From positions 69,244 to 133,243 of the forward strand of contig CAYFGP010000003.1 in the NCBI GenBank assembly GCA_964342385.1: 64,000 bases of DNA. The letters are read 5' to 3'. This document shows positions 5,997 through 57,917 of this stretch, piece after piece. The notes beneath the pieces were generated by a model, which did no database searches, was not told where the DNA came from, and saw only the letters and a list, made by a program, of their open reading frames with translations. Each line of letters opens with the position of its first letter. Position 1 is the stretch's first letter. The position numbers were made by a program, and so were the translations under genes. Origin of the DNA: an uncultured Oleiphilus sp. (GTDB lineage: Bacteria; Pseudomonadota; Gammaproteobacteria; Pseudomonadales; Halomonadaceae).

Positions 5997-6279
5997 TTCA
6001 CTTCAAACCGATCGCCCTATTCAGCTGCTTCCCTGCCGGGTAGGGCGTTTGTACCCACTTACACAAAAGCATTTCGATATTCCTTGGTCAACGGCTGAAG
6101 AGAAACTCTTGTGTGAGTGCTTATGTGTGAACCACTGTGTTTGTTTCAGATAACTCCATTTGGTTACTACAAGCCTTTTAGCTTTTATGCCTAACGTATG
6201 CCCTCTGAATCGAGTGCCCGCTGGGGTTATCTGAAACAACATATCCGCAATAAAGAAAAACCAATAAAGATTTAAGACA

Positions 6280-10601: not shown

Positions 10602-11252
10602 ATGGCTTTAGTAATTTATGACATGGATGAAACCTTGTTGAACGCAGATGCTTCAACATTGTGGATCGAATACCTGGTCGAGCAGGGCATGGCCGATGCT
10701 CAGGAAATGTTTGCTCAGGAACAGCGCTTAATGGAGCAATACCGCCAGGGCAATCTGGATGTGCATGATTATGTTTCGATGCAGTTGAAACCTAATGTCG
10801 GTATGACTCTGGGAGAACTTCAGCCGCATATCGAGCGTTATATCGATCAGAAGATTCGCCCCGTGATTCGTGATGACGCGCGCAGCAATATTGCTGATCA
10901 TCAGGCCAAGGGTGATCGTTGTCTGGTGATCTCTGCTTCTACGACTTTTTTGGTCGCGCCAATTGCCAAAGAGGTGGGAATTGATGATGCCATTGGTATC
11001 GATATCCATCTGGACGATGAACGTATTGTCGGTACGGTAAAAGGTGTGCCTAGCTATCGTGAAGGCAAGGTGACCCGTTTGCAGCATTGGCTGCAGCAGG
11101 AATCTGAGCAGATGTCTGGTTCCTGGTTTTACACCGATTCGCACAATGATTTACCTTTATTGGAACAGGTATGTAATCCGGTTGCGGTCAATGCGGATGA
11201 CAAACTGGTTCGTCTGGCTCAGGAGAAGGGCTGGCAGCAGGTGATTTGGTAA
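10602..11252 (+). CDS. HAD-IB family phosphatase (SerB/histidinol-phosphatase-like)
   Basis: YDMDETL (DxDxT) motif I, ISAS motif II, GKV, YTDSHNDLPLL motif IV. ATG at 10602 preferred over the upstream TTG. Confidence 0.88.
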   Translation: MALVIYDMDETLLNADASTLWIEYLVEQGMADAQEMFAQEQRLMEQYRQGNLDVHDYVSMQLKPNVGMTLGELQPHIERYIDQKIRPVIRDDARSNIADHQAKGDRCLVISASTTFLVAPIAKEVGIDDAIGIDIHLDDERIVGTVKGVPSYREGKVTRLQHWLQQESEQMSGSWFYTDSHNDLPLLEQVCNPVAVNADDKLVRLAQEKGWQQVIW

Positions 11253-43749: not shown

Positions 43750-45240
43750 ATGAAACGAGTTAACGGTGCATTGCTACTGTGTGGTGCGACAGTGATGAGC
43801 GGTTGTGCTCACATGTCCAATACGGCACAGAACAGTGATCATGGGCGTCATTATCACAAAACAAAACGTTTTTATCAGGAGATCATCAATCAGGAGAAGG
43901 TTGATGTTTCCAAGCTGAATCTGTTTTTTACTCAGATGCCCAAAGGTGGTGATATCCACCATCACTATACTGGCAGTATTTATACTGAGACCTATCTGGA
44001 ATGGGTGGATGCCAAAGGTTGGATGATTGATAAATGCAACCTGAAGATTATTAGAGCCGCTGAAGATGCCTGTGATGGGAAGGGACTTACCATTGATCAA
44101 CTGATGAGTAACAATGCCCTGTACCGTAAGCTGCTGATGGTATGGTCCAATAAAGATTACGCAAATCATTACCACGATCAGCCACCACCCGACGCCAATT
44201 TCTTCCAGACTTTTGGCTATTTCGGTGGTGTTTCTGGCCAATATATGGACACAGGGCTGAATATTCTTAAGACACGTGCCAAGAAAGAGAATGTGAGTTA
44301 TATCGAAACTATGCTGCGAAAAGTGGGTGCACGCAGTGAAAATGTTTTCAATGAGGATCAAATTGCTCAGATTTCACAGCGGCTGAGAGCGGCAAAAGAC
44401 CAGGCAGCAGTCGATGAGATTCTGGAGCAACTGGTGGAGGTTTACGATAATAGTAAGAGCTTTGATAAAGCCATTAAAAAGTATCTGTCTAAGTTGAATA
44501 AAGATCATCAGGGCATCGACGATGAGCACTTTACTATGCGTTATCAGACCTATGCTTCCCGAACCTCCAACCCTGTGAAAGTGTTTACTGATCTTTATTC
44601 TGGTTACGTTGCAGCGGATATGTCGCCACTGGTGGTTGGGGTCAATATTGTCGCGCCGGAAAACAACCATATTGCGCTCAGGGACTATACCCTGCACATG
44701 CGCATGTATAACTTTCTTAAACGAAAATACCCGGATGTGGGCCGTTCGCTACATGCCGGTGAATTAACTCTGGGTATGGTGAGACCAAAAAACCTGACTT
44801 TCCATATCAATGAAGCCAGAAGTATCGCCAAGGCTCAGCGTATTGGTCATGGTGTTGATCTTCCCTATGAAGAGAAGCCTGAAGAGTTACTTAAAGATCT
44901 GAAAGAGAACTCTGCCATTGAGATCAATCTGACCAGCAATCAGTTTATCCTGGGAGTGGATAAGGAAAACCATCCTTATCAGATCTATGCCGCTTACGGT
45001 GTGCCTATGGTGATCTCAACCGACGATTCTGGCGTGTCCCGTAACAATCTGTCGGGTGAGTACGTGTTACTGGCTTCCCGCTATCGTGTGGATTATCCCA
45101 CAATCAAAAAATACGTTTACAACAGTATTGATTACTCTTTCCTGAGTGACGATGACAAGCGTAAACAGCGCGATCTTCTGGATAAATCTTTCCATCAGTT
45201 TGAAGCTGAAATTGCTCGATTGAGTGAGAAAATGCACTAA
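43750..45240 (+). CDS. Adenosine/AMP deaminase family protein (ADGF/ADA2-like), predicted lipoprotein
   Basis: Lipobox-like VMSGC; MPKGGDIHHH, LHAGE, RIGHG and STDDSG metal/catalytic motifs. Confidence 0.88.
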   Translation: MKRVNGALLLCGATVMSGCAHMSNTAQNSDHGRHYHKTKRFYQEIINQEKVDVSKLNLFFTQMPKGGDIHHHYTGSIYTETYLEWVDAKGWMIDKCNLKIIRAAEDACDGKGLTIDQLMSNNALYRKLLMVWSNKDYANHYHDQPPPDANFFQTFGYFGGVSGQYMDTGLNILKTRAKKENVSYIETMLRKVGARSENVFNEDQIAQISQRLRAAKDQAAVDEILEQLVEVYDNSKSFDKAIKKYLSKLNKDHQGIDDEHFTMRYQTYASRTSNPVKVFTDLYSGYVAADMSPLVVGVNIVAPENNHIALRDYTLHMRMYNFLKRKYPDVGRSLHAGELTLGMVRPKNLTFHINEARSIAKAQRIGHGVDLPYEEKPEELLKDLKENSAIEINLTSNQFILGVDKENHPYQIYAAYGVPMVISTDDSGVSRNNLSGEYVLLASRYRVDYPTIKKYVYNSIDYSFLSDDDKRKQRDLLDKSFHQFEAEIARLSEKMH

Positions 45241-45251
45241 GAGGCATTCGG

Positions 45252-45281
45252 CAGTTCCCCTGAAGTAGATCAGGGGAACTG
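45252..45281. terminator. Stem-loop after the deaminase gene
   Basis: CAGTTCCCCTGA-N6-TCAGGGGAACTG. Confidence 0.6.
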
Positions 45282-45427
45282 TTGCAACTGGTACGGTGCC
45301 CATAAAAAATATGAACTCTTAGAGTTGTATCAATCTCCCATCATCTTCTGGATTGGCTATGGTTAAAGGCCAAGTTGGTCACTAAGCACTCACACAAAAG
45401 TTCCTCTTTAGCAGATGGCATCATTCT

Positions 45428-45616
45428 TCAGCCGCTGGCCAAAAAATATCGAAATACTTTTGTGTAAGTATGTATGAACAATTTAAGTTTTGATTTGCGA
45501 CTAAATTTGTCGCATTCTTGGCTTGGGAAAGATGATAGCGGTCGACATAAGGGGCTCTTTTCACTTGGTTCACTGAGAGATTGGATAATCCGCTCCTTGT
45601 TAACCTTTCGCCTCAT
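45428..45616 (-). CDS. Small basic ORF (62 aa) in the cro position, divergent from the repressor
   Basis: SD AGAGGA just upstream of the ATG and a divergent position across operator repeats; no recognisable HTH. Confidence 0.3.
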   Translation of the reverse strand: MRRKVNKERIIQSLSEPSEKSPLCRPLSSFPSQECDKFSRKSKLKLFIHTYTKVFRYFLASG

Positions 45617-45648
45617 ATTCCTCTCTTTTATTGGAAATTTTCACCTTT

Positions 45649-45722
45649 TGTAATCTAAACTTACAATTAGCAATGCAGCAGATTAAGTTATTCTTGTGCT
45701 GACTGTGCAAGTAACACTTGTA
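45649..45722. promoter_or_regulatory. Three spaced 17-bp imperfect palindromes (YAAG-N5-CTTR); probable repressor operators
   Basis: TGTAAT-ctaaa-CTTACA (45649), ATTAAG-ttatt-CTTGTG (45682), TGCAAG-taaca-CTTGTA (45706). Confidence 0.55.
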
Positions 45723-45724
45723 AA

Positions 45725-46414
45725 ATGGTCAGTATGGAAACGACAATAGGCGGCAGAATTGCCGAAGCAAGAAAAGCCAAAGGCTTTAACCAGTCAGAAC
45801 TGGCAACCCGAATCGGTGTAACTCCTCAATCAGTACAGCATTGGGAGAATGACCGTACTGTGCCAAGAAATAATAGGGTTGAATTGCTTGCCAGTGTGAT
45901 GGGCGTTAGCCAGGAGTGGATTCTCTTTGGTGATAAACCTGATCGTGTGGGTGATTCTGCAGAGGTTGTCTATACCTATAAACCGTCGCCAGGGATTGTT
46001 CATATTCCGTTTTTTTGCATAGAAACTGCTGCAGAGAAAGGGGAGGATGTAAGCTTGGAAGACGTGACAGATCGGGTCTCATTCGGTAAAGAAATCCTGG
46101 AGAAGCACGGACTGGAACAAGGACAGGTTGTTGCTGTTGTTGTCTCTGATGATCATATGGAGCCTCGTATCCTGAAAGGGGATACGGTACTGGTTGATAA
46201 ATCAGATAAAACCTTGGTGGATAACCATGTTTATCTGATACGGGTAGAGAATGCCCTAAGAGTGCAGCGCATGGTGAGCAGGGTTGACGGTAAGTGGGTG
46301 ATTACTTGCGATAACGCTAAATTTGCTCAATATGACACTCTCATCTCAAGAGAAGAATTCGATCAGCTTAATGTTATAGGTCGGGTTTTTATGATCCTTA
46401 TGGGTGAAATCTAG
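45725..46414 (+). CDS. Phage CI/LexA-like repressor (XRE HTH plus S24 domain) lacking the autocleavage residues
   Basis: RIAEARKAKGFNQSELATRIGVTPQSVQHWE HTH. S24 region VSDDHMEP (Ser->His144) and LRVQRM (Lys->Gln181) keeps the 37-residue dyad spacing. Confidence 0.9.
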   Translation: MVSMETTIGGRIAEARKAKGFNQSELATRIGVTPQSVQHWENDRTVPRNNRVELLASVMGVSQEWILFGDKPDRVGDSAEVVYTYKPSPGIVHIPFFCIETAAEKGEDVSLEDVTDRVSFGKEILEKHGLEQGQVVAVVVSDDHMEPRILKGDTVLVDKSDKTLVDNHVYLIRVENALRVQRMVSRVDGKWVITCDNAKFAQYDTLISREEFDQLNVIGRVFMILMGEI

Positions 46415-46584
46415 CGTTTCTTCTCACTGATTTTATTTGTTATTTATTGTCGTTTTTGCCTCTTTTTTAATCCTTTCTGTATTGCACTTATTATCCGAAA
46501 CTGCACCACCTTTTTCACCTTAGTACGCATTTATCATCCGAAACTGTGTTTAAATTAATCTTTGATATAGTTTAAATTATAATC

Positions 46585-46636
46585 TTGACAAGATTAACTT
46601 GATCCGTTTGAATTCTTTTTGTAATTTTAAATTGTA
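46585..46636 (+). promoter_or_regulatory. Sigma70-like promoter overlapped by the same operator motif
   Basis: TTGACA (46585)-17 nt-TTGAAT (46608); GACAAG-attaa-CTTGAT at 46587-46603 and TGTAAT-tttaa-ATTGTA at 46620-46636. Confidence 0.55.
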
Positions 46637-46696
46637 TTTGTTGGGCTGCATTATGTTTAAGAGCACGCCGTTTTGTGATTACCCAAGGAAAGATTG

Positions 46697-47011
46697 ATGG
46701 CACTGCAAGCTGCTGAAGTAAAATGTGATAACGAGGGGCACTGGCAACACCCTGATCTACCTCGTTGGGCAGAAGATGCCTCCAGTACAGAGATGGAGGA
46801 TTGGTTGGGGCAGCAGAGAATCAAATCAAAGATACTCCGTATAGAACAGGCTGAAGCAGAGCAAATCTTTAATTCTGGTCATATTGTTCGAACAAAAGCT
46901 CGATATAACAGGCACAGCTTAGACCTCTATTTGGAAAAGGGTTATATCGTGTTGTCCGTATATCGATCCGAGGAGGGGACATTTATTTGGTTAGGGTGTG
47001 ATAAGAGCTAA
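46697..47011 (+). CDS. Small hypothetical protein resembling lambdoid phage early-region proteins
   Basis: EGHWQHPDLPRW...MEDWL and a terminal GYIVLSVYRSEEGTFIW pattern recalled from phage hypotheticals; AAGGA SD before the ATG at 46697. Confidence 0.6.
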   Translation: MALQAAEVKCDNEGHWQHPDLPRWAEDASSTEMEDWLGQQRIKSKILRIEQAEAEQIFNSGHIVRTKARYNRHSLDLYLEKGYIVLSVYRSEEGTFIWLGCDKS

Positions 47012-47287
47012 ACCCTTTTTACACTACCGGTCTTATCATCTGTTTTGGCTTTCTTATTAATCTATTCTAATTGCCGCACAAAAATTCAAATAGCATTATC
47101 CATGTAGGGTATTATGAGGTCACAGATAAGCACTCACACTAAAGCTTCTCTGTGACAAAGGACTTCATTCTTCAGCTGTTGATCAAAGATCGTTGAAACA
47201 TTCTTTGTAGGTGAGTAGTAAATGAGTGAGTGAAGCTATGGCCTGCCAGCGCAAAGAATATGCACGCTTTGAAATAGGATAGATCGC

Positions 47288-48358
47288 TTGATGATAGGAA
47301 TAACAGGTTTACTGCAGCGTAAGATGCATATCGGTGTTATCACTTTGGCTATGGCTATAACCGCGTGCGGTGATGCCATTGTTGATCAGAAAGGGAATGC
47401 TAACAGTCAAGCTATCCCTGCTACATTGACTTCAGTTCCTGTGCCTGTAGAGCATAGTCATGCTGCGATCCAGCTACAAGCCAGTAATCGCTTACAATAC
47501 GGTGGTTTTTCAGCGCTCTGGTTATCTAAGGATTGCTCTCAAATGATTAGTTTTTCTGACTACAGTCAGGTCAGCTTTTTTAGCTTGGATGGCCAGGTCA
47601 AGCGCTCTGGTTGGATTCAGGCAAACCTCTCTTTTGATGCCAATGATAAGCTAACAGGGTTTAATCTTGTCGATCAGGGGCAGTTAAAAGATGCGGACGG
47701 TGATCTCTTGTCTGGTGCAGCGGAGTCTCTGGCTTGGGATGGCAGTGGCTTTTTAGTCTCCTTTGATGATAAAGGTGATCTCTATCGCTACGCTGGTGTT
47801 CAGCCACAAGGTGCTTTGTTTAATCAACTTCCTGAAATATCAATCAAGCAAGAGCGTTTGGGTAAAGACAACGCGGGCTTGGAAAGCATCACAGAGCTTC
47901 CTGACGGAAGAGTGTTAGCTCTTTGGGAGAAGAACGATAAACAAAAGCCCGTTACTCATGGGCAATTAATTCAACCAGATGGCCAATCCCTGCAGTTCAG
48001 TTACTCCTCTGACGCCAATCCAGGTGCTGCTACCACCTTGCCAGATGGCTCATTTGTAATAGCAGAGCGAAAGTACAAGGGCCCTGAGCAGGGTGTTCAA
48101 TTAAGATTAACGCGTTTTCTGCCCAGTGATATTCAGACAGATAGGCTGTTAACTCCACAGGTTCTGCTTGATCATACCTCAATTTCTTACGACAACTTTG
48201 AAGGTATCGCTAACTGTCAACGTAATGGCAAGCAGTGGTTGTTTGTGCTGTCGGATGATAATGGTGATTGGCCAGAATCCTGGGTAGAAGGTAAAGGCCG
48301 CCAGCGACAAAAGACCCTGCTAGTGCAGTTTGATTTAACCCAATTAATGGCTCAATAA
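47288..48358 (+). CDS. Esterase-like activity of phytase family protein (beta-propeller), predicted lipoprotein
   Basis: Lipobox ITAC; YGGFSAL, AAESLA, NAGLESIT, DNFEGIA and LFVLSDDN motifs. Confidence 0.78.
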   Translation: MMIGITGLLQRKMHIGVITLAMAITACGDAIVDQKGNANSQAIPATLTSVPVPVEHSHAAIQLQASNRLQYGGFSALWLSKDCSQMISFSDYSQVSFFSLDGQVKRSGWIQANLSFDANDKLTGFNLVDQGQLKDADGDLLSGAAESLAWDGSGFLVSFDDKGDLYRYAGVQPQGALFNQLPEISIKQERLGKDNAGLESITELPDGRVLALWEKNDKQKPVTHGQLIQPDGQSLQFSYSSDANPGAATTLPDGSFVIAERKYKGPEQGVQLRLTRFLPSDIQTDRLLTPQVLLDHTSISYDNFEGIANCQRNGKQWLFVLSDDNGDWPESWVEGKGRQRQKTLLVQFDLTQLMAQ

Positions 48359-48370
48359 GTTGTCACTCCT

Positions 48371-48808
48371 ATGCTAACGAATGACTCTATTCATACCGGA
48401 CAGTGCCTATGTGGGCAGGTCCGTTACCAGGTCCAGGGAAAGCCAATCATTGTTGCTCATTGCCACTGTGTGGATTGCCAGCGCTTGTCCGGCTCAGGCC
48501 ATTCTACTGGAGCTATGTTTCCGGTTTTGAGTTTTCAAATGGAAGGTCAAGTCGGTGAATTCCGATACCAGTCGGATAATGGCAATACTGTGACGCGGGT
48601 GTTCTGTCCATCTTGTGGCAGCCCAATCTTAGGTAAAAATACAGCAGCAGAAGGCTTTGTTACCATTTCACTGGGAACATTGGACAACTCCGATGATTTT
48701 CAGCCAGAAGTTGTTGTCTTTGCTCGTAACCGAAAGCCTTGGGACTATATGGATAACTCAATTTGTACATTTGAGGCACAACCGCGATGGAGCCCGGAGG
48801 ATGATTAG
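48371..48808 (+). CDS. GFA / CENP-V family Zn-binding protein
   Basis: GQCLCGQVRY, CHCVDCQR, RVFCPSCGSP. Confidence 0.9.
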   Translation: MLTNDSIHTGQCLCGQVRYQVQGKPIIVAHCHCVDCQRLSGSGHSTGAMFPVLSFQMEGQVGEFRYQSDNGNTVTRVFCPSCGSPILGKNTAAEGFVTISLGTLDNSDDFQPEVVVFARNRKPWDYMDNSICTFEAQPRWSPEDD

Positions 48809-48862
48809 CAATAATGCTATTGGGGTGTTATGCGACAGGGATTTAGAAGAAAGGAAAAGATA

Positions 48863-49162
48863 ATGATGTTAAATGCAGATGATTTGGGTGTTGATCTGGT
48901 TGGTGTAAAGGTTGCTAATACAAATGATCTCCAAACGACTCATAGCCCTGAAGCCAGGCTGGTTACCCGAGGTGTTGATGTATCAGTGCGCTATAAAGGC
49001 GTTGATATTCGCATCGAAAAGATTGAACATGATGATAATGGGCTTTTAGTCGGTTTGGTTTCCAGCTTTTCTAATGTCTGCTCGACTCAATATGAAGGCA
49101 TCGGCTTAGGGCAGAAAATCACCTTTCGCTATCATCACGTACAGCAGTCGTTTGAGAACTAG
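48863..49162 (+). CDS. Hypothetical protein
   Basis: ORF continuing the phytase-like/GFA run; AAGGA SD before the ATG at 48863; no motif recognised. Confidence 0.55.
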   Translation: MMLNADDLGVDLVGVKVANTNDLQTTHSPEARLVTRGVDVSVRYKGVDIRIEKIEHDDNGLLVGLVSSFSNVCSTQYEGIGLGQKITFRYHHVQQSFEN

Positions 49163-49337
49163 TCTAAGATTGAACCGCTGTTGTAGTGGGATATAGTTTT
49201 ACTTTGTAGTGCTCTTTATACTCTTACACAAAAGTGTTGCGGTATTTTTTAGCCAACGGCTGAAGAATCCATTTGCTAAAGAGAAACTTTTGTGGGGTAC
49301 TGAGAGACCAGCTTTAAAGGCATCAATGGCTTGTCTC

Positions 49338-50511
49338 CTATGGGCCATTGGTCTGTATGATTAGACATAGTCATTGAAATATCTGTCCTGTCCCGAATAA
49401 TATCCTTTGCACTCAGGATAATACGATGAATGTCCTAACTCTATCCAATTGCCTTCTGAAGATTGCCGTAAGCTGTAATCTCGGATCAGAAAAGCATCTC
49501 TGCCTCAAAGGGATGTTATCTGGGGCTGAATCATTCTTATGCTAAGTGACGGTCTGACGTTAGCCTACATTGTTCGAAAAATAAGTTCTAGTCGCTCTGT
49601 AGTTAACAAATGGCATAGAAGGTATGAATCAACTGGTGCCATGGAATTAAGAGACGCCTCTCGAAGCGGTCAGCCAACAAAAATGACTCCAAAGATTCGC
49701 CAAAAAATCTTGCATATGACTGTTCTCATGATTCCCTAGGAAGCATCCTATTGGAGTGTTAGGTTGATAGTGAAATATGAAGGGATTACCCACTGGCAAG
49801 TTGCTTGGATCTGGAAAGAAGCCGATCTAAAAACATATCCTTCTCACATCTAAGATGAGCAGTGATCCTTTTCTTACTGAAAAAGTAGTCGATATTATCG
49901 TGATTTATGTGTAATGCAGTAGTCTTGGCTGTTGATGAAAATATACAAATACTTGATCGAGCTCATCCTATATTACTGCTGAAACCTGGAATGGCGTAGT
50001 GTTGTGCTCACGACTATAGACGTCATGGAATGGTTAACCTGTATGCATACTTCGATATATTAGTTGGAAAAGTCTGAAGCCGTATTACTCAATGTTACAG
50101 AGCGAAAAAGCTCCTGAGCTTTATAAAGCAAATAGATCAGTCAGTACCACAAGGCCTGGATCTTCATTTGATTTTAGATGACAGCAGTACGCATAAAACA
50201 CCAAAAATGCAAGAATGGTAAGAAGAGCATCCTTGCTTTGTTATTCGCTTCACTCTTACGAGTGCCTTATGACTAAATGCAATTGAAGGTCGGTTTGCTC
50301 AGCTGGAAAGGCGATCACTTCATCGAGGAAGTTTTAATAGCACGGAAGAATTCAGGAAAGAGATTAAGCGCTTCATCAAGGCTCATAATTAGGAGAATAG
50401 CAAATTTTTTATCTGGAAAAAGTCAGCAGAGGCGACTTTAGGACCTATAGCGTAGGCTAAACTGAGCTTGTTAAAATAAAAGGTTCTCAAATTAACCATA
50501 TGGTCCACTAG
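49338..50511 (+). mobile_element. Decayed IS630-family element (transposase pseudogene)
   Basis: Interrupted frames give an HTH (VVNKWHRRY...LRDASRSGQP), then VDE, HDYRRHG, LHLILDDSSTHKTP and LNAIEGRFAQLERR with several stops/frameshifts. Degenerate terminal repeats CTATGGGCCATTGG and CCATATGGTCCACTAG. Confidence 0.85.
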
Positions 50512-50952
50512 AGGTCGATTTAATCGGCATATAATAAGAATCTTTTAGGGGGTACATGGCAAGCTTAGCTTGGTATACGATGTTTTATTAGTGCATCTTA
50601 AGAATGTTGTTTTATTATGCGACCTTATTTGTCTTGTTTTTTTATTTATATCTCACTGATTTTTTTAATGTTTTGGTGTCGTGATTGCTGTTGGTTTTTA
50701 GTTGATAAGACATGTTGTTTCATTTCTGTTATCTTGCGATCTATAAAATATTCTTAACGATATTCTGTCGTCATAAAAAATCCATTTATCACTTGTATTG
50801 AATTGTGGTAGAAGTGTTAGGTAAATGTTGAACGGTTTTATATTTTATCGTTTTGCATTATTTCGTCCGTTCTGTAGGTTTTTATGTTAGTAAAAGCTAA
50901 TTATTTTCCAGAATGCATTAATGGATATGAATATCACGAGTAGGAAGTCAGG

Positions 50953-53091
50953 ATGAATAAAGATGTGATAGTTATTGGTGCCGGTTTTACTGGGCTCACG
51001 GCGGCCAAAAAATTGGAAAAAGAGGGAAAAGATTTTTTAGTTCTTGAAGCAGAAAATAGACTAGGAGGAAGAAATTTTAGCTTTAGTCCTAAAAATATAG
51101 AAATGCCAGGGCTAGAATATGAACACGGCTCTCAATACATAGGACACTCTCAAGAGCCGCTGTGGTCGACTGTGACTGGTGATGATTTTTATAACTGGAT
51201 GGTTGAGAATTACCCGGAATATACAAAATCATTTGTACCTGATGTAGCCAATTCAAGTTCTGATTGCGACGGTAGCTTACCGCCTTACATTGTTGATAAC
51301 TACACTGATAGACTACCCTACGATGAGCAAGTGCTTATCCTGACTGACACCAGAACAAAAGAACCGACTCGATTCCCATTTAATAAAAATGATACCCCGT
51401 ACGGTATCACGGGTTTACCCAGTGGTATTGGTCTGCCTAGTATCTTGGCAATTGGCCTTGTTTCCTTAGATATTATATTTATTGAAAGCTGTATTAATGT
51501 TGTTGAGCCATGGGAGTCTGAGTTTAAAGGTCTTTATACTGCAGAAGACCTTGATTCAATCAGCTTTGAGGAATGGTTGAATGAAAGCCCGCGCAGCAAA
51601 TATATGACACCAACGGCTCTTGATGCTATTCGTATTGCTGTTCAAGCACTGCTTTCGGTTGAGCCTTCAGAAATATCTGCTTTGTATTTTTTCTGGTATT
51701 GCGCCTGTAATGAAGGCTTCTTCAATGAAGTTAATGATTCTATCAATGGCCCTCAGCAGTATTGGTTACGCTGTGGGTTTGGCAAAGTACTTGAGTTTTG
51801 TAGTGAAAGCTTCAAGGAGCAAATTCAGTTTGAGCAAACAGTGAAATCTGTTTCTGTAGATGAAAGCTCAGAGTATCCTATTTGCTTAAAGGTTAATGAA
51901 CATGACGCTTATTATGCCAAACAACTTATTGTTGCAGTGTCACCTCATACCGCTAATAAAATAGAATGGCCGAGTGATTTGCCCGAGTACTATCAAGCGC
52001 TAATGAAGCAAGGTATGGGGCGTACTCTCAAAGCTCAAGTGTTTTATGATAAAAGCTGGTGGAATAATATTGATAATACAGGGTGGCAAGGTTATTCGGG
52101 TGGTACCTCTTATCCTGTGTTATGGACCATGGACAACTCAGCCTATGATGGTAATGGAACATATCACTCGTGTCTGATGACATTCACGATTGGCGACCAG
52201 ATTAACGAACTTGAAAAAGCTTTGGCAACCGCTGAGTCAGATCCTCAGGAAGGGCTTAAGTCATTCTTGACGAAACATATTAGTTATTTGTTTACAGGTC
52301 GTTATGATTACGGACCAGCCTTAAAACCTGTCGCTATTGAATCAAGCCTTTGGGTTAAAAAAACTAATATAGATGGCTATCAAGTAGGGACTTTTATCGG
52401 TGGTGGACCTAATACTGTCTTTGCGCCAAACTTTATTACTTCAATGTATGATGGCAAACCAGCCCTATCCTATATAAATCAGCCATGGAAAAATTTAATC
52501 TATTTTTCTGCCGCTGAGCTTGCACGCAATCTTAATCCGAAAACGCCGGAGGTTTGTGAAATTAAACAAGATGAATCTGGGTCTCTACTTCCCACAGAGC
52601 AGTTCTCAGATAATCGTTGTAACTTAGGTTACATGAATGGCGCTATCTATAGTGGTCAATATGTTGCTCAGCAAGTGATCGAGGGTGTTGATTTTAAAGA
52701 ACCCGTTTCCCCTGAATCTTCAGCTGAGAAAGGACATTGGCAACCGATCACCCTGCTATCTTATGCACTCAGAAGGGCGTTAGATTCTTTCTTTAGCTCT
52801 GGGCAGACCTTTTCAGACATTACTCAGAACCAACAAGAAAAACTGCTAAGTAGCTTGTTAGGAGACTTGGATAAAGATTCAACAGATCAAGGAAGTATGG
52901 GGCATATGCTTAGAAATAGAGCTATGGAGCTCTATATGAATAAGGATATTAATAAAATTGATTTCCTGGCTAATTTAGCTAAAGAGCAACTTGACAGCTT
53001 TGATGTTGTCCATGCTCAGCTTAAACAGGAAGGTGTCTCAGAAGAGATGATTGACTTCCTGGCAAGGTTGTATGGCCAGAGTGCATCTTAA
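50953..53091 (+). CDS. Flavin-dependent amine oxidase (MAO family) with ~130-aa C-terminal extension
   Basis: Dinucleotide-binding VIGAGFTGLTAA...VLEAENRLGGR; EHGSQYIG; GRTLKAQVFYDKSWW (conserved Lys); GYMNGAIYSG. Confidence 0.85.
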   Translation: MNKDVIVIGAGFTGLTAAKKLEKEGKDFLVLEAENRLGGRNFSFSPKNIEMPGLEYEHGSQYIGHSQEPLWSTVTGDDFYNWMVENYPEYTKSFVPDVANSSSDCDGSLPPYIVDNYTDRLPYDEQVLILTDTRTKEPTRFPFNKNDTPYGITGLPSGIGLPSILAIGLVSLDIIFIESCINVVEPWESEFKGLYTAEDLDSISFEEWLNESPRSKYMTPTALDAIRIAVQALLSVEPSEISALYFFWYCACNEGFFNEVNDSINGPQQYWLRCGFGKVLEFCSESFKEQIQFEQTVKSVSVDESSEYPICLKVNEHDAYYAKQLIVAVSPHTANKIEWPSDLPEYYQALMKQGMGRTLKAQVFYDKSWWNNIDNTGWQGYSGGTSYPVLWTMDNSAYDGNGTYHSCLMTFTIGDQINELEKALATAESDPQEGLKSFLTKHISYLFTGRYDYGPALKPVAIESSLWVKKTNIDGYQVGTFIGGGPNTVFAPNFITSMYDGKPALSYINQPWKNLIYFSAAELARNLNPKTPEVCEIKQDESGSLLPTEQFSDNRCNLGYMNGAIYSGQYVAQQVIEGVDFKEPVSPESSAEKGHWQPITLLSYALRRALDSFFSSGQTFSDITQNQQEKLLSSLLGDLDKDSTDQGSMGHMLRNRAMELYMNKDINKIDFLANLAKEQLDSFDVVHAQLKQEGVSEEMIDFLARLYGQSAS

Positions 53092-56000
53092 ATGGCTACG
53101 ACATCTGAATCTACTGCTGATTCAAAGATCCTCCCTTTCCAGATTGGCAACTTTCTGGTTAAGGGAGTGTTGGGGCGTGGAGGCATGGGGATCGTTTATG
53201 AAGCTTGGGACGAGCTAAACGAACGGTCCGTTGCTCTTAAGGCTATTCAGCTTAATATTCCCTCTGCGCTTTACCGATTGAAGCTGGAATACCGCCAGGT
53301 CTCCTCAATTGTTCATCCTAATCTGGTTGGTTTATACGATCTAACATATCTGGATGGGCATTGTTATATCGTGATGGAGTACATCGAAGGCAAGGCACTT
53401 GGTCATGTTATTGCTAACACCTATGGACTAGATAATAGATTAGAAGCACTTACTTCTACAAAAATTCTTGCAGATAGCCCTTATGTTGATCAGTCCGAAG
53501 TACACTGGCCTCCTAATAAACCATTCGGATCGGATATCAACGTACTGGATATTGCAAGGCAGTTAGCCCAGGGAATATTTGCGTTGCATGTGGGTGGTGT
53601 ACTGCATTTAGATATAAAACCATCAAATATGATATTAAAAGATGATGGTCAAATTAAGCTGCTTGATTTTGGCGTTGCTCAACTGATCAATGTTAAACAT
53701 AGAAAACTGCATTATGAGAGGGCCGCTACTTTACAGTATGTTTCTCCCGAATACTTAGATGGTGAAGTCCCAACTGCTGCCAGTGACTGGTACAGTTTTG
53801 GTGTTGTTGTGTTTGAGCTAATAACAGGCAAACAATATACAAGAAGGCTGTTTCACAGAAACCCACATGAGCAAGCTATTTTTGATGAGGTTACTCTTAC
53901 ATTACTGAATGACTATTTGCCATCAAAAATAACTCTATTGTTAGAACGGTTACTGAATGAAGATCCATTGAAACGTCCACCAGATAGAGAGATTCTTGAA
54001 GTATTTAACATTCATGAGCCGCTTTGGCATATAGGGGAAGAGAAAGACGAAAAAAAGGTATTTATTGGCAGGCAAGATGAATTAGAGCAATTAAGTAATG
54101 CATTTGATTGTCATAGAGAAGGAAAGTCTAATATTGTCAATGTCGTCGGGGCCCCAGGCGTTGGCAAAAGTGAGTTGATTAATCACTTCTTAGATGCTTA
54201 TAAGGATTCGCTTATACTGGTAGGACGCTGTTATGAGCGAGAGACAGTCCCTTTCAAAGCTTTAGATATGGTCATTGATGATTTTTCTGAGTACCTGAAA
54301 AGCTTACCAGCGACAATTCGCGATAGTTATGTTGTTGATGGATTTGAGTATTTAGCAATACTATTTCCTGTTCTCAAATATCTTGTGCCAGATAAGACTT
54401 TGAATCTTAATATTGATGCAGCTCATTGTCGGATTCTGGCAATGAAGGCATTAGCATCCAGTCTGACTTTAATTGTTAATGATCAACCCGTTATTATTTT
54501 TATTGATGATATTCAATGGGGAGATGAAGATAGTGCCAACTTATTGATCAACCTAATGGAGTTTCAGTCATATAAAAAGCCTTTTATTGTATTGAGTGAA
54601 AGATCGGGAGGAGATTTAAACAGTCGTTTTACTTCTACGCTCAATCAATTCTGGAGCAATAGCAGCTCGGATATGCAATACCAGACTATTGAAGTTGAAT
54701 CTTTTGATGAAAAAGAGGGTATGACGTTGGTTGATGCTCTTTTGGGGAATGCACATGCCATTTCAGAGCAAAGGGCGCAAGAGATAGTTCGAGTCAGTCG
54801 AGGTATTCCATTTATTTTGGAACAGCTTCTTCTTTATTATGATCAAACTGGGGCTATGGAGAATATTAATGCTGTCGGTATTATCAAATCCAGGCTTGAT
54901 GTTCTGTCAAATCAATCCCGAGAAGTCTTATCTTTATTAGCTATTGCTGGTCAGCCCGTTAAGGTTAGTGCAATTCTAGAAGCTGCTGGAGTTTCCAATA
55001 TAGATGATTTTTCTTTCACTTGTCTTAGAGCCCAACGATTTCTGATTGTTCAGCATGACGAGTCGGTACAATACTTTCACGACCAAATTCGTGAATCTGT
55101 ATTGATTCTTGAGTCAGAGAATAGGGTGGAAGAGAAGGCGAGAAAGCTCGCACTTGTATTGGAGAAATATTCTGATTCTGATAATTCATTGTTAGGTCGA
55201 CTCTTCTATCAAGGCGGAGAAGATCAGAAAGCTATTTCGTTTATGCTAAGAGCGGCAGACGATGCTGAAAGCAGTTTGGCATTTAGCCGTGCAGCTGATT
55301 TATATCAGAATGTTATTAATTGGTTACCTGATTCAGAGTTTGATGAGAGCCGAAGAGTTAAAGAACGAAAAGCTATCGCATGGTCTAAAGCAGGCTATGG
55401 AAAAAAAGCAGCTCAGTTATTCAGTGACTTAATGCGAACAGGTGGCGTAAGTGACGAAGAAAGAGCTCGGCTAGGCGCTTTGGCAGCAGAACAATTCATG
55501 TACGGGGGGCATATTGAGGAAGGTGAAAAAATATTTCGTCCTTTATTAAAAAAGTGGAGATTGCCTTACCCTTCCTCAATCAAGCTGGCGACCATTAGTA
55601 TTATATACAGCGCCTTGTTATTAGAACTCAAAAGGAGAAGGCTTTCTTCTCGCGCGTTCAGCCGCTCTCAGAAAGTACACCCTAAAATCGAACTGGCTTT
55701 TTCTGTAGCACAAGCCATGGGGAACTGGGATCCTATTAGAAGCCTCCATTTTTCTTTAATCGGCCTGAGGTTAGCAATATCTGCGAATGATTTACCCTAT
55801 ATTGTTCAAGGATTGAATATATACGCTTTAGTACGCTCATACGGTGGCAAGCAAAAAGACAAAGAAGTGAGTGATTCGATTTTTAAACAAGCCTCTAGTC
55901 TAGCTAAGCAATTAGATGATCCTGCTAATACCAACTATGGCCTGTTACTTAAAGGGATTGCTCATACTGCACGTAGCGAATTGAGGCAAGGTATCCAAAT

Positions 56001-56871
56001 GATCATGGAAGCCGAATCCCAGTTCTCACAACGGCTGGTAGATACAAAAAATAATAGTGTTATTGCTCGGACAACTGCACTTAATATCTATTGGCAAATG
56101 GGTGAGTTAAATCAGATTGGTTCCCTAGCACCAGGATGGATTCAAGATGCTAAAGCCCGAGGGGATAAATTCTCTCTTGTTGAGTTAAATATGTTTCTTG
56201 GAATTTACGATGCTGCGAGAGGAGACTATATCAAAGGGCGTAAAACGATTGTGTCTGCAATTGAGTCTTGGCCATTGCAAGATTTTACTTTTCAGCACTG
56301 GGTCGCATCTAAAGCAATTACGCAAATTGATTTATTGTCTGGTCGGGAAGCTGAAGCTTGGCCGCGGTTACAACAAGAGATTAAGTTGGCTAAAAAAGCT
56401 GGTTTATTTGATTCTGTTTTTGTGCGCATCGACTTTATGTTCTTAAAGGGAAGGGTTGCATTGGCTTGTGCTGAGTCCGGCAGTAAATTAAGACCCTCGA
56501 TGATAAAGGTTGCACAGAGAGAGTCTGATAGGCTCAGGAAGGAAAATAATCATGCAGCAAAAGGGCTGGGCTTTTGTCTTCTGGCTGCAGTCGCAAGGCT
56601 AAGGAATCAGCCAGAACAGGAAATCCTGGCCCTTAAAGAGTCATGTATCTATTTTGAACTGGCTCAGATGGAATTGTATTTATTAGCGATGAATAATTGT
56701 TTGGCAAAAATTAATCGTGAACAAAGCACTCTTAAAAAAATAAAAGATCGTTTTATTGATCTAGGTGTTAAAGATCCTGAACGATACCAAATAATTTACT
56801 ACCCATATATGGCTTATTATGATGAAAAGAATATTTTTGAGTTCAATGATCGGGATTGCCTGATGGAATAA
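53092..56871 (+). CDS. Hanks-type Ser/Thr kinase fused to a STAND (SWACOS/AAA_16-type) NTPase and a helical repeat C-terminus
   Basis: Kinase: LGRGGMGIVY, VALK, HLDIKPSN, DFG, YVSPE, SDWYSFGV. NTPase: FIGRQDEL, GAPGVGKS, IFIDDIQWGD. Long TPR-like helical tail. Confidence 0.9.
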   Translation: MATTSESTADSKILPFQIGNFLVKGVLGRGGMGIVYEAWDELNERSVALKAIQLNIPSALYRLKLEYRQVSSIVHPNLVGLYDLTYLDGHCYIVMEYIEGKALGHVIANTYGLDNRLEALTSTKILADSPYVDQSEVHWPPNKPFGSDINVLDIARQLAQGIFALHVGGVLHLDIKPSNMILKDDGQIKLLDFGVAQLINVKHRKLHYERAATLQYVSPEYLDGEVPTAASDWYSFGVVVFELITGKQYTRRLFHRNPHEQAIFDEVTLTLLNDYLPSKITLLLERLLNEDPLKRPPDREILEVFNIHEPLWHIGEEKDEKKVFIGRQDELEQLSNAFDCHREGKSNIVNVVGAPGVGKSELINHFLDAYKDSLILVGRCYERETVPFKALDMVIDDFSEYLKSLPATIRDSYVVDGFEYLAILFPVLKYLVPDKTLNLNIDAAHCRILAMKALASSLTLIVNDQPVIIFIDDIQWGDEDSANLLINLMEFQSYKKPFIVLSERSGGDLNSRFTSTLNQFWSNSSSDMQYQTIEVESFDEKEGMTLVDALLGNAHAISEQRAQEIVRVSRGIPFILEQLLLYYDQTGAMENINAVGIIKSRLDVLSNQSREVLSLLAIAGQPVKVSAILEAAGVSNIDDFSFTCLRAQRFLIVQHDESVQYFHDQIRESVLILESENRVEEKARKLALVLEKYSDSDNSLLGRLFYQGGEDQKAISFMLRAADDAESSLAFSRAADLYQNVINWLPDSEFDESRRVKERKAIAWSKAGYGKKAAQLFSDLMRTGGVSDEERARLGALAAEQFMYGGHIEEGEKIFRPLLKKWRLPYPSSIKLATISIIYSALLLELKRRRLSSRAFSRSQKVHPKIELAFSVAQAMGNWDPIRSLHFSLIGLRLAISANDLPYIVQGLNIYALVRSYGGKQKDKEVSDSIFKQASSLAKQLDDPANTNYGLLLKGIAHTARSELRQGIQMIMEAESQFSQRLVDTKNNSVIARTTALNIYWQMGELNQIGSLAPGWIQDAKARGDKFSLVELNMFLGIYDAARGDYIKGRKTIVSAIESWPLQDFTFQHWVASKAITQIDLLSGREAEAWPRLQQEIKLAKKAGLFDSVFVRIDFMFLKGRVALACAESGSKLRPSMIKVAQRESDRLRKENNHAAKGLGFCLLAAVARLRNQPEQEILALKESCIYFELAQMELYLLAMNNCLAKINREQSTLKKIKDRFIDLGVKDPERYQIIYYPYMAYYDEKNIFEFNDRDCLME

Positions 56872-56890
56872 TCATGTAGTTAGTTTTGAG

Positions 56891-56929
56891 ATCTGTATTT
56901 ACGATAAACATCGTAAATACAGATTTTTG
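56891..56929. terminator. Terminator between the convergent kinase and PAP2 genes
   Basis: ATCTGTATTTACGAT-aaac-ATCGTAAATACAGAT, a perfect 15-bp stem followed by TTTTT. Confidence 0.7.
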
Positions 56930-56938
56930 CTAAAAAGG

Positions 56939-57628
56939 TTACTGATTAGAAGAAGACTTAGCTATACAAGAGTCTTCCTTTAACATCCACTTGGCCATCA
57001 GCCAGCCACTGGCGTAACAGATATAGCCTGAGAAGATAATATCACTCAGAAAGTGCCCGCCCTGAATTACTCGAATACCACCAACAAACAAGCCTAAAGC
57101 TATACCAAACGTCATCCAGCGGCGGCAACGGAATACCCAACCCAGTGCGATAAAGGCAAACCCCATGGCGGCATGGCCGCTCACAAATGAGCAGTTTTTC
57201 TGACACTGGTTACTCACTTCTAGTGGTGGCGTAAAGTTCAGTTGGCCGCCAAACTCTACTACGTCCCTTGGACGGGCTCGATCCCAGTTATCTTTAAAGC
57301 CGGTGTGTACAATGATGCCAGGGCCAATCAGGAGAAAGGCAAGCATAAAGTAAGATTTTCGCTTGTGGGTTCTACTCCATTCTGGTGCTTGTTTAAGTAG
57401 AGGGACTAGGCATAACGCGAGTAATAGGGGAATGATAACGTTGGGAAGTTCCTTGAAGAGCCAGTAGATAAACTGTACAAACAGATTGTCGTTGGCGGGG
57501 AAACTCACTGTGGTCGGGTCATAGAATAACCCTGTTATCATGATGTCCAGCTCGGGCCAGAGGGTGAACAGAAGCGCTGCGAATAGGAAACTTGTGGAAG
57601 CTATGCCAAATGGCCATTTTTTTATCAT
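56939..57628 (-). CDS. PAP2 family integral membrane phosphatase (lipid A 4'-phosphatase LpxF-like)
   Basis: KDNWDRARP (K-x6-RP), SFVSGH and RVIQGGHFLSD motifs; several TM helices. Confidence 0.85.
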   Translation of the reverse strand: MIKKWPFGIASTSFLFAALLFTLWPELDIMITGLFYDPTTVSFPANDNLFVQFIYWLFKELPNVIIPLLLALCLVPLLKQAPEWSRTHKRKSYFMLAFLLIGPGIIVHTGFKDNWDRARPRDVVEFGGQLNFTPPLEVSNQCQKNCSFVSGHAAMGFAFIALGWVFRCRRWMTFGIALGLFVGGIRVIQGGHFLSDIIFSGYICYASGWLMAKWMLKEDSCIAKSSSNQ

Positions 57629-57917
57629 CGTAAGTTCCGTACATTTTTTTATTATTGGTAGAGGCTAAGTTCGTTTAGCCACACTGACGTTACCAAAACA
57701 CGTAAAAATTTCAAATTTATGACTCATATTGAGCCCTTCTAATATCGGGTGAATATAGAATATTTGGTTATAGAGCTGCTTGGTCAAAGATTGTCGCAAC
57801 GGAATATTAAGGAAAGATTAAGAGATCAGCGGTGGAAAAAATGTTAGAGGTTGAGAAGACGCATTTACTGCAGAAGTGTTGATAAATGCGTCAGCTCGAT
57901 GTGTGAATAGGGGCGAT

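Follow-up and report, generated by a model that had tools for sequence, protein, structure and literature searches.

An orphan cI-type repressor with a predicted non-cleavable S24 domain in an uncultured Oleiphilus sp.

The repressor gene, its operators and its promoters

The 64,000-nt stretch of DNA analyzed here (GenBank assembly GCA_964342385.1, contig CAYFGP010000003.1, positions 69,244 to 133,243; hereafter the window) stems from an uncultured Oleiphilus sp. and contains a segment of about 1.7 kb with a cI-type repressor gene, four operators and a single phage-type gene. A first-pass annotation made from the letters of the sequence had read it as a stranded lambda-like immunity region with an uncleavable repressor. 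In our assessment, this segment is probably (at odds of roughly 60%) what has been left of a lambdoid immunity region after it was pared down to a selected, constitutively active, SOS-blind orphan repressor and its targets. Its principal features, in window coordinates, are the following.

45648-45666: operator O1, a perfect 19-bp palindrome TTGTAATCTAAACTTACAA, with the one-mismatch core TAAT-N5-CTTA at 45651-45663
45684-45696: operator O2 TAAGTTATTCTTG, an exact YAAG-N5-CTTR site
45699-45726, plus strand: predicted repressor promoter CTGACT-16-TAAAAT, from a consensus scan
45708-45720: operator O3 CAAGTAACACTTG, an exact match
45737-46414, plus strand: cI-type repressor gene, 225 amino acids (229 from the alternative ATG at 45725)
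46484-46503 and 46527-46546: a 20-nt direct repeat GCAYTTATYATCCGAAACTG in two copies at a distance of 43 bp, past the repressor stop codon and ahead of the PL-like promoter
46585-46613, plus strand: PL-like promoter TTGACA-17-TTGAAT ahead of the 104-amino-acid gene, read from the sequence and conserved in Oceanospirillum beijerinckii
46589-46601: operator OL CAAGATTAACTTG, an exact match inside the spacer of the PL-like promoter
46619-46637: degenerate operator-like sequence TTGTAATTTTAAATTGTAT just past the -10 hexamer, with three mismatches to the 19-mer and rated weak
46697-47011, plus strand: phage-type gene of 104 amino acids in the position of the first gene after PL, matching PHROG 1372 (unknown function; E 2.6e-9)

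The repressor matches PHROG 4 'transcriptional repressor' (E 9e-39), and its N-terminal part matches the helix-turn-helix (HTH) family HTH_3 above the Pfam threshold (residues 12-64, E 5e-14; residues are numbered throughout according to the 229-amino-acid form starting at ATG 45725) and resembles the 434 repressor (residues 8-72, E 1.5e-8). PADLOC returned generic HTH matches only for this locus. Residues 111-222 match Peptidase_S24 (PF00717) with 44.5 bits against a cut-off of 23.3 (E 1.4e-11), so that the C-terminal domain can be predicted to adopt the Peptidase_S24 fold; the CI-type repressors of lambda, 434 and P22 possess the same HTH plus Peptidase_S24 architecture. Translation probably starts at ATG 45737, since the arrangement TAAAAT-N7-ATG is common to all four relatives for which upstream sequence is at hand, the metagenomic loci L003, L008 and L045 among them, and since this is the only ATG that aligns across these four. 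The conserved arrangement suggests a leaderless, lambda-like (PRM-type) start of the repressor transcript.

In lambda-type immunity regions, a tripartite operator separates the repressor gene from the cro position, and a second operator is found at a PL-type promoter; both are present here. The three upstream operators and the second operator/promoter region proposed in the first-pass annotation were recovered as exact sites at 45684, 45708 and 46589 and as a one-mismatch core in the palindrome at 45648-45666. The tested core, the 13-bp YAAG-N5-CTTR, differs from the ACAA-N6-TTGT of phage 434; a scan of the window found nine exact copies versus 4.9 expected, and three of the nine lie within about 400 bp of intergenic DNA flanking cI. 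O1 is the sole zero-mismatch match to the 19-bp palindrome motif in the window and agrees at 18 of 19 bases with TTGTAATTTAAACTTACAA, a palindrome in the OL region of the phage locus L003. O2 has a counterpart, CAAGTTATTCTTG, at the equal position in L008 and L045, and O3 corresponds to TAAGCAACACTTG in L008 and to TAAGTAATGCTTG in L045. Exact sites thus occupy two equivalent upstream positions in both loci (24 bp apart in L008), a further exact site, TAAGTTTAGCTTG, follows the cI gene of L008, and two one-mismatch sites are present at the PL-like promoter of L003. The centres of O1, O2 and O3 are spaced by 33 and 24 bp, compared with 34 and 25 bp in the chromosomal loci L033 and L034 that will be discussed below. 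The left half of the degenerate sequence TTGTAATTTTAAATTGTAT matches the palindromes of L003 and L008.

In a second allele of the locus, all four operators and both hexamers of the PL-like promoter are unchanged, and the substitutions occupy spacer positions: 45667 and 45669 (immediately right of O1), 45682, 46580 and 46607. A direct repeat GTTTAAATTA (copies at 46548 and 46570; span 46548-46591) lies just 5' of the -35 hexamer, and one of its 22-nt units is missing in the allele of the metatranscriptomic run X4. The two 20-nt repeats GCAYTTATYATCCGAAACTG could be a binding site for another factor. As a definition of the operator, the 19-bp motif TTGTAA-N7-TTACAA was dismissed, as it is not enriched at up to three mismatches (32 found, 36 expected). 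Far from the locus, at 50560-50572 and 380 bp upstream of an amine oxidase-STAND kinase pair, the perfect palindrome CAAGCTTAGCTTG fits the operator motif; it is a single site outside any cluster and, hence, probably a chance match.

Loss of the cleavage residues, expression and selection

The closest relatives of the repressor are the L045 protein (59% identity), which was added by a metagenome scan, and P0002 (57%) and P0003 (54%), both from a word-indexed search. An alignment of the window protein with these three relatives gave the following picture of the residues required for self-cleavage.

Cleavage site (codons 46031-46036): LAAG in the relatives, TAAEKG in the window (A103-E104)
Nucleophile motif (codon 46154-46156): G[ED]SM in the relatives, SDDHMEP in the window (H144)
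General base motif (codon 46265-46267): KVKR in the relatives, RVQRM in the window (Q181)

H144 and Q181 fill the columns that hold Ser and Lys in P0002, P0003, the L045 protein and 74 of the 85 full-length relatives that could be aligned, and A103-E104 stands where the three closest relatives have Ala-Gly. The alignment thereby confirms what had been read from the sequence, the loss of the catalytic Ser, of the catalytic Lys and of the Ala-Gly cleavage site. The same dead residues recur in two other DNA assemblies (L001 and L002, 100% identical) and in contigs from four metatranscriptomes, and they are consequently not assembly errors. In LexA, each of the three kinds of replacement singly blocks self-cleavage. 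The lexA3 mutation (G85D) is a Gly-to-acidic change at P1' that has this effect. Replacement of the nucleophile (S119A; PMC4980697) or of the general base (K156A; PMC3834820) abolishes self-cleavage as well. The window protein is hit at these same positions; in contrast to the laboratory non-inducible (ind-) and LexA point mutants, its losses are natural, threefold and fixed across strains. The sequence predicts that the repressor is unable to cleave itself, and the uncleavable, ind- type character claimed in the first-pass annotation is therefore well in line with the replacement of nucleophile, general base and P1' Gly.

The DNA-binding part of the protein has fared differently. Of the positions that do not vary among the three phage relatives, 8 of 46 are replaced in the HTH domain of the window protein versus 28 of 85 in its C-terminal domain, where the replacements include G104E, G142D, S144H and K181Q. 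The recognition helix PQSVQHWE is unchanged from that of the phage relatives (PQS[VI]QHWE), in keeping with the preservation of the HTH that had been proposed. Repressors with a dead S24 domain appear to be a recurrent minority of the family instead of a rarity, since 11 of the 85 relatives (13%) lack Ser or Lys. Six of these 11 dead-dyad proteins carry Arg in the Lys column, and in three of the six (P0036, P0088 and P0098) the Gly at position -2 from the nucleophile is replaced by Asp. At this position the window protein, too, has Asp (D142), with Gln in the Lys column.

Contigs that are 97-99% identical to the locus were found in four metatranscriptomic runs (X3, X4, X5 and X7) from two studies. 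Contig depth, a crude measure, was distributed as follows in these strandless contigs.

X4: repressor 92; neighbours about 30; 104-amino-acid gene 25
X5: repressor 22; neighbours 10-21; 104-amino-acid gene 0-3.5
X7: repressor 19.5; neighbours 2-9; 104-amino-acid gene 0
X3: repressor 20.2; upstream genes 27.6 and 8.9; 104-amino-acid gene on the contig of the repressor, with no separate value

The uneven pattern, with 45496-45643 uncovered in X3, argues against DNA carry-over as the source of the coverage, and the contigs are evidence of transcription of the repressor gene. The lower depth of the 104-amino-acid gene in X4, X5 and X7 is a hint at its repression. Adapter-tagged contig ends were considered as transcription start sites, judged too unreliable and not used.

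Two natural alleles supplied by the metatranscriptome contigs allowed us to assess the selective forces acting on the repressor. One differs from the window sequence by five synonymous and two non-synonymous changes (S185R, I193V), the other by ten synonymous and two non-synonymous changes (V58A, K127Q), and two synonymous changes are common to both. Pooled, these are 13 synonymous changes at 154 sites and four non-synonymous changes at 521 sites, a ratio of non-synonymous to synonymous rates (dN/dS) of about 0.09 (binomial p = 4e-6). The dead C-terminal domain alone accounts for nine synonymous and three non-synonymous changes, and codons 104, 144 and 181 are unchanged in both alleles. Between strains, the repressor diverges by 1.0-1.8%, compared with 2.2-3.0% for the flanking contigs. 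The repressor is under strong purifying selection, its dead domain included. Lack of expression and neutral evolution of the HTH had been named in advance as observations that would speak against a domesticated repressor; we found the gene covered in four metatranscriptomes (depths 92, 22, 20.2 and 19.5), a dN/dS of about 0.09 across two alleles and a recognition helix like that of the phage relatives, all of which lends support to its domestication.

These data fit poorly with the view that the locus is a neutral relic, a decaying prophage fragment in which the triple residue loss would reflect ordinary pseudogenisation. Such decay might be read from the replacements at invariant sites, which are twice as frequent in the C-terminal domain (28/85) as in the HTH (8/46), from the long terminal branch of the protein in the phylogenetic tree described below, and from the disappearance of cro and the rest of the phage. 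However, the open reading frame (ORF) is intact, the low dN/dS extends to the C-terminal domain with its nine synonymous versus three non-synonymous changes, the operators are invariant while their spacers vary, RNA depth in four runs is at or above that of neighbouring genes (in X3, above one of the two upstream genes), and divergence is below that of the flanking genes. We consider it very improbable that the locus is merely decaying.

What was lost from the probable prophage, and its relatives

The edges of the remnant and the dispersed repeats next to them are listed here.

45428-45616, minus strand: divergent ORF of 62 amino acids in the 'cro position', not Cro, coding status doubtful
45625-45645 (approximate), minus strand: breakpoint at the cro start, from a DNA alignment with L045, L008 and L003 and from the extent of blastn homology
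45372-45475: left border, an element about 100 nt long that has inverted repeats at its termini (ACTCACACAAAAGT...ACTTTTGTGTAAGT) and resembles repetitive extragenic palindromes or miniature inverted-repeat transposable elements (REP/MITE-like)
47118-47205: right border, a diverged copy of this element (79 nt, 72% identity) in the same orientation as the left copy

Phage homology runs through the operators up to the region of the cro start codon, whose ATG is destroyed, and does not extend farther left; this abrupt stop indicates that a deletion took cro and everything beyond it. From the cro/OR/cI/OL/PL order that had been proposed, the operators, cI and the second promoter are upheld, but the small divergent ORF is not Cro. 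It aligns with neither of the Cro proteins of L003 and L008, has no match in Pfam, PHROG, NCBIfam or PADLOC, coincides with no called gene in the metagenome record L001, and its last 14 codons are inside the dispersed repeat. That it might be a cro remnant was rejected, as a tblastn search with the two Cro proteins over the whole window matched only the HTH of the repressor itself. There are weak hints of a small protein or an upstream ORF in this stretch. RNA contigs span it in X4, X5 and X7, not in X3. The six allele differences over the 62-amino-acid ORF comprise four synonymous and two non-synonymous changes, and the same count holds for an antisense frame of 59 amino acids (45474-45653, plus strand).

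The neighbours of the remnant include no integrase, replication, excision, antirepressor, lysis or structural genes. On the left lie genes for FecR, an extracytoplasmic function (ECF) sigma factor and adenosine deaminase; on the right follow a phytase-like protein, GFA, IS630 remnants, the amine oxidase-STAND pair, PAP2 and recD-recB. No tRNA was found in the window, and Rfam had no match over 45200-47400. With homology ending at the cro start and all surrounding genes being chromosomal, the description of the region as stranded holds.

The repressors of coliphage 186, N15 and the Gifsy phages are inactivated by an antirepressor and not by self-cleavage. One could accordingly envision that the segment is a still mobile or inducible element, a satellite or mini-island between direct repeats, whose repressor yields to an antirepressor. 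Two repeat copies of the same orientation do flank the 1.7-kb unit, and dead S24 repressors make up 11 of 85 full-length relatives (about 13%). The flanking repeat, however, belongs to a dispersed genomic family that is represented at least five times in the window, and the flanking pair is only 72% identical; moreover, an integrase, replication, excision or antirepressor gene is lacking among the neighbours. That the module with the 104-amino-acid gene lies close to recD in two species would fit a prolonged stay at this locus or, alternatively, separate acquisitions. We thus regard mobility of this kind as highly unlikely. The element itself, which has 14-nt terminal inverted repeats and no Rfam match, recurs at 6057-6123, at 49223-49294 and around 408 in the window, and at 3778-3869 in L002. 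Summed over its copies, its RNA depth exceeds that of neighbouring genes 40- to 90-fold in X3, X4 and X5 and about 5- to 20-fold in X7, and it yields chimeric contig joints, e.g., from 45475 to 49270 in X3.

Relatives that have remained part of phages were found in metagenomes. P0003 is encoded on a 46-kb contig (L003) together with a divergent Cro/YdaS, CII (Phage_CP76), lambda P and a tape-measure protein, and in L008 and L045 the opposite strand carries a cro gene about 110 bp ahead of the repressor. These three loci share with the window the recognition helix, the operator motif and its spacing, the TAAAAT-N7-ATG arrangement and a PL-like promoter after the repressor; they differ by retaining Ala-Gly, Ser, Lys and the divergent Cro/YdaS, and L003 also by its CII, lambda P and tail genes. 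A maximum-likelihood tree places the window protein as sister to the catalytic P0002 and P0003 (87/88), within a clade supported at 99/97, on a terminal branch of 0.71 compared with 0.21 and 0.38 for P0002 and P0003. The search of phage genomes for the operator motif, which the first-pass annotation had recommended, was successful in part: the metagenomic L008 and L045 share motif and spacing, but IMG/VR and the cultured phages yielded none. Eight matches to the 19-mer in IMG/VR, from three sequence families, were set aside as chance, none being near a repressor homologue. Searches of genome and viral contig collections gave no relative of the repressor above 33% identity, and the best match among cultured phages was 30% identical. 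In L003 (10770-11107), a leader of about 280 nt separates the PL-like promoter and operators from the first gene, and this leader holds a strong hairpin resembling an intrinsic terminator at about 10937-10965; the layout suggests an antitermination arrangement of the N/nut type. An HTH plus Peptidase_M78 (ImmA-like) gene is situated farther downstream in L003.

The next clade in the tree (P0014, P0008, P0013 and P0012) parallels the window protein. All four of its members have Arg in the Lys column, and two have lost Ser. P0008 and a 90%-identical orthologue reside in two Oceanospirillaceae genomes (L033 and L034, both metagenome-assembled, one of them a Pontibacterium), next to a gene for a GGDEF-EAL protein. 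The contig of L034 extends farther and includes a gene for aldehyde dehydrogenase as the other neighbour; phage genes are absent. Upstream of the regulator (L033 3727-3798; L034 2275-2346), each of these loci has three exact YAAG-N5-CTTR sites, with no others in the locus, and the orthologues show a dN/dS of 0.16 at a dS of 0.29. Hence, the dead dyad, the chromosomal setting, the three operators and purifying selection recur, whereas the P0008 clade differs in its level of identity (38-45%), in its substitutions and neighbours, and in lacking a downstream PL-type gene. As the topology of the tree requires an independent loss in this clade, chromosomal members with dead catalysis and an intact tripartite operator arose at least twice. 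P0008-type loci also contain a conserved divergent gene of 120-134 amino acids with no family match.

The P0008 clade, vertically conserved between ordinary metabolic and signalling genes, brings another role to mind. The window repressor might have been recruited as a host regulator that controls distant chromosomal genes, with its local operators serving autoregulation only; purifying selection and expression argue for a function of some kind, and precedents for such recruitment exist (PMC1524924; PMC11879457). Yet the exact sites away from the locus are near chance in the 64-kb window (six others, with 4.9 expected for the whole window) and are unclustered, and we therefore judge recruitment of this kind to be rather unlikely. 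A broader proposal, which we put forward as speculative and rather unlikely, is that Oceanospirillaceae repeatedly capture the repressor of one immunity group (YAAG-N5-CTTR), disable its SOS-sensing protease and keep a heritable, uninducible anti-phage gene in variable, defence-rich regions. The dead cleft may have been remodelled instead of randomly decayed; under repeated capture, it might have been refashioned into a structural or receiver surface (Asp-Asp-His plus Gln in the window protein, Asp at -2 plus Arg in several relatives).

A regulatory model and its weighing

The selected orphan repressor that we favour lends itself to a simple regulatory model. A lambdoid prophage would have lost cro and all that followed it on one side and everything past the first PL gene on the other, and selection would have kept the immunity remnant in the chromosome. 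Dimers of the repressor would bind the operators via the HTH, with the dead S24 domain being kept for dimerisation and cooperativity; they would regulate the repressor's own promoter and repress the PL-like promoter of the 104-amino-acid gene. With neither RecA*-stimulated self-cleavage nor an opposing Cro, the switch would be locked 'on' and blind to the SOS response: it cannot flip if cro is gone and self-cleavage is impossible. The steps from operator binding onward we infer from homology, the position of the motifs and their conservation. The host would probably benefit from standing protection against phages of its repressor's immunity group and from the permanent silencing of the adjacent phage gene. 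Cro-bearing relatives that share the recognition helix and the operators do occur in marine metagenomes, which makes homoimmune protection plausible.

Several observations weigh against this model. The RNA contigs extend 5' of the predicted -10 hexamer (to 45711 in X3 and farther in X4 and X5), in conflict with a leaderless PRM-type transcript; since the contigs are strandless, the RNA over 45438-45710 may run in either direction, and the predicted start sites are provisional. Routes of inactivation other than self-cleavage, by an antirepressor or by Lon/ClpXP, may operate, and a phage with this operator set was not found in IMG/VR or among cultured phages. Silencing of the 104-amino-acid gene is, furthermore, not indispensable, since O. 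beijerinckii keeps gene and promoter without an adjacent repressor gene.

The last point bears on a different reason for retaining the repressor, namely an addiction in which the 104-amino-acid gene (or the 62-amino-acid ORF) is harmful when derepressed, as is the case for RacR-YdaS/YdaT and DicA-DicB (PMC5700373; PMC5700377; bioRxiv 10.1101/2023.04.14.536235). The exact operator in the promoter spacer of the 104-amino-acid gene and an RNA depth of this gene below that of the repressor in three of four runs would be expected from such a pair. On the other hand, a 76%-identical copy is present in O. beijerinckii under the same promoter, with only an IS630 remnant upstream, no close homologue of the repressor was found in the genome contig collection, the P0008-type orphans have no such downstream gene, and the 104-amino-acid protein matches no toxin family. 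The position of the operator fits the RacR-YdaST and DicA-DicB systems, whose adjacent gene is harmful, while any toxicity of the neighbour is putative here. Addiction is, on balance, an improbable explanation.

Among known systems, the favoured reading of a selected, SOS-blind repressor finds its closest counterparts in RacR (Rac), DicA (Qin) and PaaR2 (CP-933P), immunity repressors that are kept in defective elements, are expressed and control adjacent phage genes. RacR is essential and silences ydaS and ydaT (PMC5700373); PaaR2, which is devoid of the peptidase motif, is unresponsive to mitomycin C (PMC8630535). Their loci keep Cro- and CII-like partners and many prophage genes, whereas the window has kept the repressor, its operators and one gene, and the S24 fold is retained but dead in the window protein, in contrast to its absence from the repressors of the E. 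coli cryptic prophages. From lambda, 434 and P22, the locus differs in lacking both cro and a prophage. LexA of Synechocystis sp. PCC 6803 (sll1626) belongs to the S24 family, is devoid of Ala-Gly and of the catalytic Ser, and acts as an SOS-independent transcription factor (PMC1524924). It has thus lost its cleavage site and its catalytic Ser just as the window protein has, but it is a winged-helix LexA orthologue with a host regulon, whereas the window protein is a phage-derived cI with phage-type operators.

The locus illustrates how far a prophage can shrink and yet stay useful, to about 1.7 kb with one repressor, four operators and one gene. This remnant is conserved, and host-associated communities in nature express it. 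Should the immunity reading be correct, an SOS-proof orphan repressor would be a very cheap phage-defence gene of a kind missed by standard defence catalogues. A neighbouring clade that lost catalysis independently while sharing the operator layout offers a natural experiment on what the S24 domain does without cleavage. Current understanding is not overturned by these findings; they add a marine example to the class of RacR, DicA, PaaR2 and the Synechocystis LexA.

The 104-amino-acid gene was correctly recognized as a phage-type hypothetical: its product matches PHROG 1372 and, weakly, early-region hypotheticals of Vibrio phages. It has no match in Pfam or PADLOC and a marginal one in NCBIfam (RdgC, E 0.058), and a profile search returned only the protein itself and the O. 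beijerinckii copy. Its AlphaFold2 model is of low confidence (pLDDT, predicted local distance difference test, 62.5), and the Foldseek matches to it are uncharacterised phage proteins only. DNA homology with O. beijerinckii covers 46575-46996 at 72%; there, the gene abuts recD (L026 8315-8489, compared with 47000-57900 of the window). RecD and RecB of the two organisms are 91% and 93% identical, and the window accordingly stems from a close relative of O. beijerinckii. Between the 104-amino-acid gene and recD, the window has some 11 kb of accessory genes (phytase-like, GFA, IS630 remnants, amine oxidase-STAND, PAP2), and the region upstream of recBCD consequently varies between the two genomes.

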